This document shows, piece by piece, positions 27,564 through 33,522 of a DNA stretch of 64,000 bases; the stretch's first letter is position 1, and every line of letters starts with the position of its first letter. The DNA lies in assembly GCF_041146345.1 (NCBI RefSeq), contig NW_027191410.1, positions 620,001-684,000 of the forward strand, given 5' to 3'. The stretch is from Neodothiora populina (lineage: Eukaryota). The notes below the pieces were generated by a model. It had not been told where the DNA came from, ran no database searches, and saw nothing but the letters and a program-made list of their open reading frames with translations. The position numbers were made by a program, and so were the translations under genes.

Positions 27564-29176
27564 ATGATGCAGCCAGCGTCAAGTGTCTTCCGCCTGCTGC
27601 GGCAGACAGTCCCAAGGCTCGGCCAGGACGCCACCTTTGTGTGTCGTAGATGTGTACAGAGTCAAGCATCGCTTAAACAGACCCCGACGACGGTATACAA
27701 GTCTACCAAGCAGACTCCCTTCCTCCAGGCCTTCCGTTCGCCGTCACACCCGACATCAATTGGTCTCCGACACAACTCGACTTCTCCCTCACTGAGTCAA
27801 GTCGGCCAGGCACTTGGAAAGGCAGGCGCTGAGCAATCCGCGAAGAAGTCATTCTTGCCCGAGACCAGCTCCAAGTCTGTGGCATATTTCCTGCTCGGCA
27901 GCGCTGCAAGTGTCTTCGGTATAGTTGTATTTGGTGGTCTCACACGATTGACAGAATCTGGGTATGTGGCTACTGCTACCACTACTACTTGCAAGCATGA
28001 ACTGCAGGAGAATATCTGACTCATTCTTGTAGTCTGAGCATCACGGAATGGCGCCCTGTCACAGGATCATTGCCACCCACAACCACGGAGAAATGGGAAG
28101 CCGAGTTCGCGCTATACCGCGCATCGCCTGAGTTCAAGCTACTGAACTCCCGGATGGACCTGGAAGAATTCAAGCAAATCTACTGGATGGAATGGATACA
28201 CAGACTATGGGGACGTGTCGTCGGCATTTCCTTCCTGCTACCCACCATCTACTTTGTCTCACGTCGCCGCGTCTCTGCTCCGATGGCTCGCAATCTCACT
28301 GCCATCTGCGGTCTGATTGCCTTCCAGGGTTTCATCGGTTGGTGGATGGTCAAGAGTGGTCTCAAGGATGACTTGTTTGCTCCCGGCAGCCACCCTCGCG
28401 TCAGTCAATACCGCCTCGCCGCCCATCTAGGCACTGCCTTTGTGTGCTACCTGGCCATGGTATGGAACGGCATCTCCATCCTCCGTGAGCACCGCCTGCT
28501 AGCCAACCCCGCCGAATCGCAGAAGCTCCTCGCCCAGATCTCCCGACCACGCCTGAGATTCTTCCGCGGCAGCGTCGCCGCCCTCTGCGCCCTCGTCTTC
28601 GTGACAGCCATGTCCGGCGCTCTCGTTGCGGGTCTGGACGCCGGCCTCATCTACAACGAGTTTCCCTACATGGGCCTAGGACTGACGCCACCCAAGGCCG
28701 AGCTCTTCGACAAATTCTACAGCCACACGCCAGACAACTCCGACCTCTGGTGGCGCAACATGCTAGAGAACCCATCGCTCGTGCAGCTCGACCACCGAAT
28801 CCTAGCCACGACAACATTCACCTCCGTCATCGCCCTGTTCGCCTACGCGCGCTTGAACCCGTCCATGCGCGCCCTGCTGACCCGCGACGCGCAGAAAGGC
28901 GTTTTGGGCCTTGTGCATCTCGCCTCCATCCAAGTCATCCTGGGCATCAGCGCTCTGATCTACTTCATCCCGACCCCTGTCGCCTCAGCGCATCAAGCGG
29001 GCGCTCTGGCTCTGCTCACGGGCGCCACGGTGCTAGGACGCCGCGTGTGGATCTCGAAGAGAGCAGCCAAGCTTGTCGCGAAGAGATTATCCTCATCTGC
29101 GGCTCCGCTGCGTTCGAGTCCGCTGTCTAGAGGCCCGGACGCCATGTTGCGCGCGCAGACTGGTCTCGCTAACTAA
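27564..29176 (+). CDS. COX15: Heme A synthase, mitochondrial, 2 exons
   Basis: Presequence-like N-terminus; VFGGLTRLTESG|LSITEWRPVTG, FKQIYWMEWIHRLWGR, GWWMVKSGL, PRVSQYRLAAHLG, GLDAGLIYNEFP, QLDHR, ASAHQAGAL. Confidence 0.96.
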
Positions 29177-30578
29177 GCGAGCGAGCTAGCTAGTTATTGA
29201 AGGACCATGCCCCCTCCTCCTCTCTGTCTCATCTTTTTTCTTTCTACTGTATTGTATGTATATATATATACCTCGATAAATCAAACATGAAATGTTCGAA
29301 CACTGCCCTTTTCCTTCCCCTCTCCCCTGTGTTTCTAGGTCAGTAATGCTCAAAAGGCGTATAACGATTCCAACAGAGGTTATGAGACGCGTGCTGTACA
29401 CCTTATTCTTTGCAATCTCCATGGGTCAAGTAGATGGAGGGGAGGGTTCCTGGAGTACCTCATATCTAGATCGACAAGATAGATTCGTGTCGCTGTTATG
29501 TGTACTCTTCTGCTTTTTCTGCTGTTTACTTACTCGCAATGCTTGCTTGCATTCTTGCTTGATCTGGTAAATATATTTATAGATTGTATACCTGTTGATG
29601 ATCGCGTTATATACCTTTTAATGATGGCGTAACGTACCTTAGCTGTTCCAGTCTGTCAGCATGTTGAGGTGCTCATTGCATTCGTCTTGTCCGTCCAGGT
29701 ACAACTGTCTATCCATCCATCCATCCGTTCGTTCCTTCTAGAAATAACCACTGCAGAGCAGGAACTCACATGTCCAACTGTCACAGCCCTCCATCCACTT
29801 TTCTTTACCTTGCCTTGCCTTGCGTCACTTTGCTTTGCCCTACCCTTACCTTACCTTACCTTGAGCTGGAGTATTGACGCCCAAGAATCCTCGCAATGAA
29901 AGACCAGAGACATTTTTTTTAAAAGGGCAATACCAGGAAGCTGTCTAATCTCGCAAGACTACCACTAGAAGCCAGAGCAACAAGAGCAACAAGCAACAAC
30001 AGTGAAAAAGCTCTGACCCCTTTGCTTTTTCCTTTCCAAAACAGCAAGAAGAAACGGTTTAGTCGCATCCGACCATCCATCCATCAAGATATCCAACACC
30101 AAAAAAGACGAGAAAAAAGAGAAGGTGATATCCACATCCTAGATGTTCCTCCATCCCAAAGTAGAAGAGCGACAGACAAGAAAAAATTCCCCGAAATGAA
30201 AGACCCATATCCATCTCCTCGTCCTCCAACCCTCCGTCTCCTCTCCCAACTCTCTTGTGCCAGCTACAAACCCGCCGGTTAAGGCAAGGCAAGCTAAGCG
30301 CACAAGTCCACGAGAAACGCGAGACAAGATGATGAAGAGTGATGAGGAAGTCAAGGCCGGCACCAGCTGCAAACCCTTGCGGGTAAGCTATTACTCACGA
30401 CCAAAACTCCTCAACACTCGACAACACCCTTCTCGACTCAGTGAATGTGAAAGAAGAAATGGAAAAGAAAGTCCTGTTGGATTTACTTAATGGTGATGAT
30501 GATGATTGATGAGCCTCTGCTCTTGACGTATGGTGGGAAAAAGAAAAAGGCTGTTGGAAAAAAAAGTGTGTGAAGGAG

Positions 30579-30721
30579 GACAGTCGAGCCCGCAAGAGGC
30601 ACTGTCGAATTGGCCCAAACCCGCAAGAGGCGCCAGTGTTGTTGTGATGTTCCCCGATGACGATCAAGCCCGCAGGAGGCATCGTGTCTGACATGACAGT
30701 CAAGCCCGCAAGAGGCACCGT
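30579..30721 (-). repeat. Array of four bulged stem-loops, core GCC-UCYUGCG-GGY on the minus strand, in the probable 3'UTR of the Ppc89-like gene
   Basis: Plus-strand copies at 30579-30606, 30611-30635, 30660-30685, 30696-30721 share CCCGCARGAGGC; flanking stems differ in sequence but stay complementary. Confidence 0.8.
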
Positions 30722-31062
30722 ACTTTGTGTTGTTGTTGTTGTTATTGTTATGTCCGAGCAGGTGGTGACAGCTCCATGGTGCCGTAAACTGAAGCAATTG
30801 CTTGAAAAGTTCTCAAAAGCGCCGACCCAAATATGCCAGAGCAGTGCGTGGACTGATGGTTGAGAATGCTTAGGTAGGGGAACAGAGCCCTCAGAAGTGC
30901 CCGATCCAATGACCAGTAACCCAAAACCGCCAAAGAAAAAAAGAACCAAAAACTCCGTACCGTAAGCCGCTGGTTCGATAATGCGAAGACCAGGGAAGAA
31001 AACATTCATAGGGTATAGAGCGGAAAACAAGTGGTCGTAGGTATCGTGACATCATTGATGAT

Positions 31063-31818
31063 TTAGAAGAAGGTGGACATGTACTGTCCCTTCTGCTTGA
31101 GAGGAGAGCGAGCACTTACTGTCACCATGGGAGCTGCTGGGAGCTGGGGGACACACTGAGAGACGACGGCAGCGCGTCGAACGCGAGGTCTGGTGCGGTG
31201 AGTGTTGCTGTCTCTTGGGACGGTGTTGTCCTTGACATCACGTGCGACACGAGGTCTTGTCCTTGGGATGGTAATGTCCTGGGCAGAGACCTTGGCGCTA
31301 GCCTCGCGATAGTCATGAGGACGAGTGCGGGTAATGGAGATATCCTGAGCAGCGACCTTGGTGCTGGCTGCACGGAAGTCATGAGGACGAGTGCGAGCGA
31401 TGGAGATCTGCTGGGCAGGAACCTTGGAGCTGGCCTCGCGCAGGTCACGAGGACGGGTGCGGGCAATAGCGATGGCAGATGGCGAACAGTTGCCACTGAC
31501 ATCGCGTGCAGAGCCATGGATGGTCTTGGGGACCGGGGAGACGAGCTTCTCAACCTCGGCAAGTCTGCGTGGAGTGTACTCATTGCTGGAGTCGAATACA
31601 CCAGTGAAGTTGGTGTTGTCGACAAGGTAGGCTTCCTGACCGAAGTCGCTCATGCCAGTCATGTCGCTATCTTGGGTGATGTCACTGACGCCGGTCATGC
31701 CCGACTGACGTGAGTCGATGCGGAACTCGGCGGTACCGCTGACGCGAGTAGGGAGGCCAGCGAGGTCCTGCTGGGCAGGTTCGCTGTCTTGGATGGAGGT
31801 GGGACGCTGATATGCATT
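31063..31818 (-). CDS. In-frame C-terminal extension of the Ppc89-like ORF beyond the TAG (251 codons, RTRP repeats); needs editing/readthrough, or is a pseudogenised tail or separate ORF from ATG 31698
   Basis: GGT GCA TAG AAT GCA TAT CAG CGT ... TCG GGC ATG ACC is open and in frame with listed ORF 31063..31698; codon bias (C/G-ending) matches the upstream part. Confidence 0.55.
   Translation of the reverse strand, partial: NAYQRPTSIQDSEPAQQDLAGLPTRVSGTAEFRIDSRQSGMTGVSDITQDSDMTGMSDFGQEAYLVDNTNFTGVFDSSNEYTPRRLAEVEKLVSPVPKTIHGSARDVSGNCSPSAIAIARTRPRDLREASSKVPAQQISIARTRPHDFRAASTKVAAQDISITRTRPHDYREASAKVSAQDITIPRTRPRVARDVKDNTVPRDSNTHRTRPRVRRAAVVSQCVPQLPAAPMVTVSARSPLKQKGQYMSTFF
31180..31475 (-). 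repeat. ~60-bp (20-aa) degenerate tandem repeat, five RTRP units
   Basis: IAIARTRPRDLREASSKVPAQQ/ISIARTRPHDFRAASTKVAAQD/ISITRTRPHDYREASAKVSAQD/ITIPRTRPRVARD.../NTHRTRPRVRR. Confidence 0.9.
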
Positions 31819-33522
31819 CTATGCACCGCTGTCGTCGATGACGCCGCTGAAGTCACTGATCTGACTGGGCTCATCGAGGCCGCTCAACTGAGTTGTGTCT
31901 CTGTCATAAGAGGCAGCAATGTCTTGAGTGCGGGTGTGCTGCGCGAGGCTCTGCTCGGTGAGGGTAGGTCTGCTGTCATTGATGGACAGGTTGGACGAGA
32001 TGGTGATGTCGGTGCCGGTAGAGACGACACGCTGGGACTGGCCGAGCTCAGAAACTCTGTGGGCCAAAGCCACGGGATCAATGCTGATCTTTTGCAGAGT
32101 GGTCTCGAGGTCTTCGGCGGTGCCCTTCTCCTGGCTGAGGATGACATCTTCGAGGTCGTACAGCTGCTGAGAGATGTAGCGAACCTTTTGCTGGAGACGA
32201 CCGATCTTCTTGTCGACACGAGTACGCTCTCTACGCGCACCGGTGGGCTCAAGCTGGCAAAGCTTCGACATGTTTGTCTGGAGCTGATCCTTGGCAGTGT
32301 TGTACTCGATCTCGAGGTTCTGCTTGATCTTGGACAAGGCAGCAGCGGGTGACTGCGATGGACGGACGGTGGCCATGGTGTCATCGATGGTGCCATCGAC
32401 AGAGTCGTTGAGAAAGCCCATGTGGGCAGTGACATCGTTGTTTGCAACGGCAGACCTCCGAGACTTGATGGTAATGTCAGGGAGCAGAAAGTCAGATGTC
32501 ATGCCTTCCTCGACGTGACGAGTGTCATGGCCGGCTGCGGACAGGGCCTCGGCCTCCTTCCTGGCCTCCTTCTTGGCCTGTTCACGACGAGCCTTGTCGG
32601 CGAGATGGAGAAGACGCTCTGGAGAGTCCTCGGGCAACATGGCAGCGAGCTGGTCAAGAGCAGGACCGGCAAAGTTGGTGCTGTGTTCAGAGTAGGAGAT
32701 GGCATCAGATGCACGAGGAGACTGGACGCGGACGCTCTTGGCCTTGTTGGCAAGGTAAGAGGCCTCGAGGCTCTTGCGGAGATGTGAAACGGCATCTTGC
32801 TCTGGCTTGGTGACGTTGGTCAGGTCGGCAGTGATGTCAAGAGGGTCTTCCTCGGTGGTCACAGTCTTGGATGGGCCGCGGTTGTTCTGCATCAGGCGCT
32901 GGGGAGACTTGCGAGCCTTTGCAGGAGAAGTCTTGGGCAGAGCCTTGAGCTCCTTGAGCGCTTCTTGTGCGGAAAGGGGAAGATTGAAGCTCTGCAGGTC
33001 GAGCTTGGTCGAGACTTGATTGTGTCGCTGGGTGTGGACCGAAGTCTGCGAGGCCTTGCGGCTCTCCTGAGCACTGCGGAGCTGAGCGCGAAGAACAGCG
33101 TTCTCGTTGAGTGCGTCGACAAGCTTGTCGGCGGTGGAACGCGTCAGACTCTGATAAGTCTCGCGCTGTTTCTGCTCCTTCTGGAGTTGTGCGGTGAGGC
33201 CGTTGATCTGGCTCTCGTATTGTTCGAGTTGTTCATATTGGCTGATGTTCTCTGACTCGAGCCTCAGGATCTTATTCTTGGCGGCAGTGAGGTTGGCGAA
33301 CAGGCTCTTCTCCTCGCGCGGGAGGTTGAGCGTCTTGACTCCGGGCTGAGTGATGGTGGCAGTGTGGCCAGTGGAAACAAAGCGTGTGGAGGCTTTGGCA
33401 TTGCGCGCCTTGCGGCCGCCAGAGACGAGTTCGGTGATGTTGTTGAGGTCAGGGAGGTTGAAGTCGCCGGTGACGGTGTTGCCAGCAGGCACGGCGAACC
33501 TCGAAGGCATGACGGTGGACAT
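31819..33522 (-). CDS. Ppc89/Cep57-like spindle-pole-body coiled-coil protein (divergent; 567 aa up to the TAG)
   Basis: Segments I recall from fungal Ppc89 homologues: FNLPDLNNITELVSG, EEKSLFANL..KILRLE, EEGMTSDFLLPDIT, and Cep57 microtubule-binding-like TVRPSQSPAAALSKIKQNLEIE...SQQLYDLEDV; family call from memory, no HMM run. Confidence 0.72.
   Translation of the reverse strand: MSTVMPSRFAVPAGNTVTGDFNLPDLNNITELVSGGRKARNAKASTRFVSTGHTATITQPGVKTLNLPREEKSLFANLTAAKNKILRLESENISQYEQLEQYESQINGLTAQLQKEQKQRETYQSLTRSTADKLVDALNENAVLRAQLRSAQESRKASQTSVHTQRHNQVSTKLDLQSFNLPLSAQEALKELKALPKTSPAKARKSPQRLMQNNRGPSKTVTTEEDPLDITADLTNVTKPEQDAVSHLRKSLEASYLANKAKSVRVQSPRASDAISYSEHSTNFAGPALDQLAAMLPEDSPERLLHLADKARREQAKKEARKEAEALSAAGHDTRHVEEGMTSDFLLPDITIKSRRSAVANNDVTAHMGFLNDSVDGTIDDTMATVRPSQSPAAALSKIKQNLEIEYNTAKDQLQTNMSKLCQLEPTGARRERTRVDKKIGRLQQKVRYISQQLYDLEDVILSQEKGTAEDLETTLQKISIDPVALAHRVSELGQSQRVVSTGTDITISSNLSINDSRPTLTEQSLAQHTRTQDIAASYDRDTTQLSGLDEPSQISDFSGVIDDSGA

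Follow-up and report, generated by a model that had tools for sequence, protein, structure and literature searches.

Setting of the array between two convergent genes

The DNA analysed was a 64,000-nt stretch of the Neodothiora populina genome (GCF_041146345.1, NW_027191410.1, 620,001-684,000), referred to below as the window, in which all positions are counted from the first letter. The last exon of COX15, encoding haem A synthase, lies on the plus strand at 28001-29176 (Pfam COX15-CtaA, E 3.2e-94), and a Cep57/Ppc89-like gene lies on the minus strand at 31063-33522 (Pfam Cep57_MT_bd, E 1.6e-7, 32.1 bits against a cutoff of 31.3). The two genes are convergent with a stop-to-stop distance of 1886 nt, and this gap holds, at 30579-30721, an array of four short hairpin units that sits downstream of the Cep57/Ppc89-like gene and on the same (minus) strand, as the original prediction had placed it.

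The Cep57/Ppc89-like reading frame is interrupted by a stop codon. Its first part, ORF1 (33522-31822, minus strand), comprises 567 codons and ends at an in-frame TAG (31821-31819), after which ORF2 (31818-31066, minus strand) runs on for 251 open codons to a stop at 31065-31063. This second stop lies 341 nt from the first hairpin, in agreement with the ~340 nt previously given for the extended frame. From its codon usage ORF2 looks like a coding extension of the gene: a codon model trained on the other ORFs of the window assigned it ~0.5 bits/codon, about equal to COX15, its third positions are rich in C and poor in A, and it carries 22-residue RTRP repeats, with synonymous differences among their DNA copies. 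These repeats are encoded by a 66-nt unit present three times in tandem inside ORF2 (31239-31473, 72-73% identity). The only detectable relatives of the Cep57-like protein were 11 proteins with 27-39% identity over 16-45% of the query, each 862-967 aa in length, and by these lengths it is the long form that resembles a real protein. A search for homologues of ORF2 among proteins of 441-2000 residues returned none, which is weak evidence. No plausible intron was seen by eye around the in-frame TAG, which could be a site of read-through, the result of a recent nonsense mutation or an error in the sequencing.

No coding-like window is present in the 1886-nt gap (maximum 0.19 bits/codon, compared to ~0.5 in the genes), and because the flanking genes converge on non-coding sequence, a promoter is not needed here. 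A 204-codon ORF over the array was rejected as coding sequence on account of its flat codon-position composition, the absence of a Pfam family and the absence of a homologue among proteins of 112-357 residues. A coding explanation of the array itself was also rejected, as it has no coding signal and its conserved cores are out of frame with each other, a consequence of core-to-core spacings of 36, 49 and 31 nt. Similarly, a 51-codon hydrophobic ORF at 30214 was dismissed as a small-protein gene, with one marginal match (E 3.3e-4) and no aligned stretch.

Further features were observed in the gap. UGUA, UAUAUA and A-rich signals occur ~100 nt past the COX15 stop, and ~1.3 kb of non-coding sequence separates the likely COX15 3' end from the array. 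A (CAA)n-type microsatellite, which also matches 2769-2801, occupies 30728-30749 on the minus strand directly upstream of the first hairpin, and U-rich stretches were seen by eye ~120 nt after the Cep57-like stop. Judging from its composition, the A-rich microsatellite could act as a poly(A)-site positioning element, and together with the U-rich stretches it could set a poly(A) site upstream of the array; positioning at 30728-30749 would leave the array outside the mRNA. The gap also contains a 17-nt inverted repeat (29805-29821 with 30281-30297, 94% complementary, arms 459 nt apart) with CCTTG/CAAGG-type pentanucleotide runs, whose arms could pair into a long-range helix if the gap is transcribed.

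Repeat units and copy number

The four units were recovered on the minus strand with sequences exactly as first described. In transcript order, hairpin c1 (30696-30721) reads ACGGU-GCC-UCUUGCG-GGC-UUG-ACUGU and has one G.U pair in its lower stem; c2 (30660-30685) reads ACGAU-GCC-UCCUGCG-GGC-UUG-AUCGU; c3 (30611-30635) reads UGGC-GCC-UCUUGCG-GGU-UUGG-GCCA, with one G.U pair in its upper stem; and c4 (30579-30606) reads GACAGU-GCC-UCUUGCG-GGC-UCG-ACUGUC. Written as DNA with the bulge, the shared core is GCCTCYTGCGGGY(TYG), present in four copies that each lie between complementary arms. Throughout the 64-kb window the core GCCTCYTGCGGGY occurs four times, always within the array and always on the minus strand, compared to a mean of 0.18 in shuffled sequence (0/100 shuffles reached four). 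When up to three mismatches were allowed in the 16-mer core, eight matches were obtained against 3.19 expected, namely the four exact ones and four scattered ones with three mismatches each, so that the extra matches are at about chance level. A blastn comparison of the whole gap with the 64-kb window revealed no second copy, microsatellite matches only.

Conservation within the array is graded. The 16-nt core varies at just three positions across the four copies, and c3 shares 15 of its 16 letters despite unrelated arms and spacers. The bulge is on the 3' side in every copy (UUG, UUG, UUGG and UCG in c1 to c4), the spacers are 4-23 nt in length and cannot be aligned with one another, and likeness among the copies ends abruptly at the hairpin borders. 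The conserved loop and upper stem, the one-sided bulge and the spacers differing in both sequence and length had each been proposed beforehand, and all three are borne out. Plain tandem duplication does not account for such sharp unit borders, and a duplicated tract decaying evenly along its length would not end up with a fixed core, varying arms that still pair and unalignable spacers. As a sequence pattern, this gradation fits selection on a hairpin that is read through its loop and bulge. Overall, the pattern is non-random and best explained as a selected hairpin.

The units are nevertheless less independent than the original prediction implied when it counted them as four separate pieces of evidence. 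While the shared core and the pairing hold, c1 and c4 are identical at 23/24 positions and the flanks A-C...GTC are common to c1, c2 and c4, so that independent support for the pairing comes from c2 and c3 only.

Related sequences were sought elsewhere. Metagenome contigs scanned for two cores 15-45 nt apart yielded 37 loci, none with a conserved core between varying, pairing arms; all were plain tandem repeats in which the whole larger unit including the 13-mer recurs, mostly on contigs of 58-78% G+C, and they were judged unrelated. A literature search for 11-letter core strings gave no fungal element in the partial texts of the matches listed. An origin as a transposon subterminal repeat or MITE was rejected, since no terminal inverted repeats surround the array and, microsatellites aside, nothing else in the 64 kb matches the gap.

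Pairing is retained while the arms vary

A covariance model, suggested with the original prediction as a check, was trained on c1, c2 and c4, folded as proposed, and run over the 64-kb window with filters off. It scored these three copies at 42.9, 42.0 and 44.6 bits, respectively, and recovered the copy held out, c3, at 17.1 bits (E 0.017 for the window), with the extra bulge base placed correctly as an insertion and despite different arms, which still pair. The next-best match in the window, at 11.7 bits (E 0.89), was a plain short palindrome.

The claim that the lower stems differ in sequence yet always pair was then assessed by counting pairs in an alignment of the four units. Standard pairs filled 37/40 cells, a number reached by 0/500 shuffles, and five of the ten pairs had changed on both sides, which was reached by 1/500 shuffles; when the partners were slid by 1-3 columns, pairing fell to 19-44%. 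Compensatory change is thus present, in figures that are biased towards the structure because the alignment was fitted to it and has only four rows, two of them near-identical. Individual comparisons gave more modest values. All three arm differences between c2 and c1 preserve pairing, as random triple changes do in 108/3240 cases (3.3%); c4 turns the G.U pair of c1 into A-U, where 6/30 single changes (20%) keep pairing; and the arms of c3, which resemble no other arms in the array, pair over 4 bp with a chance of 0.073 (7.3%) for the same geometry at random places in the window.

These values bear on the possibility of a neutral local repeat, in which a short palindrome was copied a few times by slippage or gene conversion within a long non-coding gap, has no function and shows covariation by chance among four copies. 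Restriction to a single locus with no further copy in 64 kb is what such copying would leave, the near-identity of c1 and c4 suggests recent copying or conversion, each of the chance values above is modest, the pattern was chosen post hoc, and there is no stability signal (see below). Against this, c3 has retained nearly its whole core amid unrelated arms and spacers, the unit borders are abrupt and the spacers unalignable and of unequal length, and the arm changes are without exception pairing-preserving. We consider a neutral origin unlikely; if it were correct, the array would be a caution on inferring covariation from four local copies.

Folding energy and strand

The array does not exceed its shuffled counterparts in stability on either strand, and on the minus strand it folds worse than they do. 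On the minus strand the 166-nt array folded at -42.4 kcal/mol, compared to -49.4 +/- 3.9 kcal/mol for dinucleotide shuffles (z +1.82), and 194/200 shuffles folded at least as well; on the plus strand the z score was +1.02. Single units folded as proposed, weakly, with minimum free energies from -7.5 kcal/mol (c1, z -0.25) to -11.6 kcal/mol (c4, z -2.04). The most stable copy, c4, was the only one with a z score near -2, and 10/200 shuffles folded equally well. Overall, the hairpins show no stability beyond that of shuffled sequence.

The original prediction had assigned the hairpins to the minus strand on the grounds that two copies need G-U pairs, which on the plus strand would be A-C. The premise stands, with one G.U pair each in c1 and c3 and six wobble pairs among the 37 paired cells of the minus strand that function on this strand only. 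However, the plus strand still pairs 32/40 of the same cells, and a preference of five cells is a weak argument for strand.

Plus-strand folding is part of a broader alternative, in which the array belongs to an independent non-coding transcript of the 1.9 kb gap, made from either strand and including plus-strand C(GCAA)G tetraloop hairpins. On the plus strand such a hairpin with a bulged A is possible in three copies, the centroid structure retains three of the four hairpins, ~1.3 kb of the gap is otherwise unexplained, and the gap also contains the 17-nt inverted repeat and two further small hairpin-like elements, A and B, described below. On the other hand, neither strand matched Rfam at an E threshold of 10, fewer cells pair on the plus strand with the lower stem of c1 lost, the plus strand lacks a promoter-like pyrimidine tract, and the GCAA loop becomes GCAG in c2. 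We regard a plus-strand or independent transcript as very unlikely.

Elements downstream of the array

Directly after c4, a pyrimidine-rich tract including U8 occupies 30520-30578 on the minus strand, and its sequence would suit either a CT-box core promoter or the U-rich surroundings of a 3'-end site. Over 468 nt (30214-30682, minus strand), from inside c2 to the 51-codon ORF, the sequence contains no ATG. Only one ATG-free gap on the minus strand is longer, 72/5000 shuffles likewise lacked ATG, and the stretch could be the leader of an unannotated transcript.

Two smaller elements lie within this stretch. Element A (30369-30388, minus strand) reads GC-UU-ACCC-GCAA-GGGU-UU-GC and folds at -10.1 kcal/mol (z -0.80). 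It contains CCCGCAAG (30383-30376, minus strand), the exact complement of the conserved CUUGCGGG of c1, c3 and c4, placed within a small C(GCAA)G tetraloop hairpin ~200 nt from the array, for which chance was roughly estimated at ~0.05-0.1. As DNA, CCCGCAAG could be an inverted fifth copy of the core, and as RNA it could be an anti-motif. Counting this inverted copy, 5/9 window matches to CYTGCGGG fall in the array locus. Element B (30259-30294, minus strand) has GCGGGUUUG in common with c3 and GGGUUUGYAGCUGG in common with element A, and its predicted fold has a 3' bulge beginning UUUG, with no support from stability (z 0.06). Of the minus-strand matches to GGGYTYG in the window, 6/18 fall in a 560-nt stretch at this locus.

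This arrangement is relevant to a DNA-level explanation, in which the 16-bp core would be the site of a DNA-binding protein, present four times in direct orientation as a homotypic cluster. Such a cluster could serve an unannotated minus-strand transcript, starting in the pyrimidine tract, as an upstream activating or barrier element, or it could be a roadblock or insulator between the convergent genes, with the arms a historical accident. A long, near-invariant core with variable spacing is typical of binding-site clusters; array, CT-rich tract and ATG-free leader follow one another in the order of a fungal promoter; DNA sites work either way round, as the inverted core 8-mer ~200 nt away would require; and a thermodynamic signal of RNA structure is absent. 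Compensatory changes in the arms and a one-sided bulge are, however, unexpected for a double-stranded site, neither of the convergent flanking genes needs a promoter here, and downstream there is no coding-like window, the 51-codon ORF at 30214 being without relatives. Taken together with the comparison to AlcR sites made below, we judge a cluster of DNA sites to be an improbable explanation, at about one chance in a handful; were it to hold, the array would mark an unannotated transcription unit.

A multivalent hairpin array as a tentative explanation

Our preferred reading, held at a probability of roughly 40%, is that the four units form a multivalent RNA hairpin array on a minus-strand transcript and present YUUG-type single-stranded words. 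The transcript would run on from the Cep57/Ppc89-like gene, either as a long 3' UTR isoform or as read-through RNA in the termination zone. Each hairpin would consist of a lower stem of 4-6 bp, free in spelling provided that it is paired, and a fixed upper stem GCC(U)/(G)GGY, and its fixed single-stranded parts would be the loop UCYUGCG (a pentaloop CYUGC if U.G closes) and the UYG bulge on the 3' side. The four copies could then offer several landing sites together to a single RNA-binding protein with a preference for short YUUG-type words. The likely outcome would be control of 3'-end fate, through termination or decay of read-through from the convergent pair, or through the stability or translation of a long-UTR isoform. 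A Nab3-like RRM protein would be a candidate reader, as the optimal word of the budding yeast protein, UCUUG, is found in the loop of three of the four copies; the resemblance that makes a Nab3-type reader a candidate is one of five letters within a 16-nt conserved core. From the repeat, its pairing and its position we infer that the array would be transcribed, that the minus strand would be the one used, and that a protein would bind the RNA and affect its fate.

A more specific version of an RNA-level role appears distinctly unlikely to us. It would make the hairpins a new protein-binding RNA family that serves as a multivalent platform controlling the mRNA of a spindle-pole-body component, possibly switched by CCCGCAAG, for example in localised or cell-cycle-timed translation or decay, or in coupling to read-through of the in-frame UAG.

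The array is a clean candidate for a new cis-element. If it is transcribed and bound, a new case of RNA-protein recognition would be gained, along with a way to study the control of a spindle-pole-body mRNA or of transcription between convergent genes.

Comparison with known systems

Searches of both strands of 28500-32000 against Rfam 15 gave no match with an E value of 10 or lower, and thus no IRE, SECIS, histone stem-loop, snoRNA or Rfam-listed fungal motif, in line with the earlier statement that the hairpins do not belong to a known RNA family. Kink-turn, H/ACA snoRNA, Ire1 site, Rnt1 AGNN loop and U1A-type loop were set aside as their consensus does not fit the letters of the units, and the same applies to PacC, CreA, Reb1 and Ndt80 sites at the DNA level.

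The consensus of the fungal regulator AlcR is WGCGG. AlcR/alcA homotypic clusters resemble the array in having a fixed core, variable spacing, both orientations and a position upstream of a pyrimidine tract. PMC13606033 quotes an AlcR site with TGCGG and CCGCA, and TGCGG is found in every copy of the array, which favours the DNA-level explanation. Conversely, this likeness extends over just 5 bp, whereas the array has a 16-bp core, flanks that covary as a hairpin and no regulated coding gene found downstream.

In budding yeast, Nab3 recognises UCUUG as its optimal word as well as CUUG, and Nrd1-Nab3 terminators consist of many weak sites that act jointly, according to the excerpted sections of PMC10317158. 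Three of the four loops of the array contain UCUUG, the fourth has UCCUG, and c1 and c2 carry CUUG across the bulge junction; these words belong to one repeated unit and are therefore not independent. AGUAAA, GUAA and UGUAG occur within 300 nt downstream, by our estimate at about the frequency expected of four-letter words. The clustering of UCUUG/CUUG words downstream of a transcription unit is thus like that of Nrd1-Nab3 terminators as these excerpts describe them, whereas Nrd1-Nab3 sites are plain single-stranded words and the array has a 16-nt conserved hairpin core. The pathway is described there for budding yeast and may not be that of the present host.

Structured RNA elements of fungi have also been screened systematically. 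The hairpin passages of one such screen concern other motifs, and its accessible portions mention neither a tandem array nor a spindle-pole gene (PMC5640933); those of a second contain no mention of tandem, bulge or spindle and no tandem hairpin array (PMC8216456).

Three hairpin elements with known readers or functions allow a closer comparison of structure, and the original prediction had distinguished the array from each of them. SECIS elements have a kink-turn core with an AUGA...GA quartet and act where a UGA codon is recoded. Here the upstream in-frame stop is TAG, the units are without a sheared G.A core and no Rfam match was found, which speaks against SECIS-type recoding. Smaug/Vts1 elements (SREs) have a CNGG(N0-3) loop and a stem whose sequence is free, and paired SREs are found in the nanos translational control element. 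They are like the array units in being short, multi-copy hairpins of a 3' region with a pentaloop on a free stem, and differ in having no conserved bulge. The pentaloops of the array are CUUGC in three copies and CCUGC in one, with U at the third position where Smaug/Vts1 requires G, so that this distinction is upheld.

In animals, 3' regions with arrays of hairpins read by a protein are textbook examples of regulation, among them the transferrin-receptor IREs and the Smaug sites of nanos, and we know of none described in filamentous fungi. The IRE has the hexaloop CAGUGN and, five pairs below the loop, an unpaired C on the 5' strand. The separation of the array from the IRE is likewise confirmed by its loop UCYUGCG, by its 3-4 nt UYG bulge on the opposite (3') strand and by the lack of an Rfam IRE match; it also differs in its fungal host and in being known here from sequence alone. 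In architecture, on the other hand, the transferrin-receptor 3' UTR is its closest counterpart: five IREs form an array there in which the protein-read loop and bulge are fixed, the stems are freely spelled and the spacers are unrelated, and the present array in the same way combines several small 3'-region hairpins with a fixed loop and bulge and with stems that need only pair.
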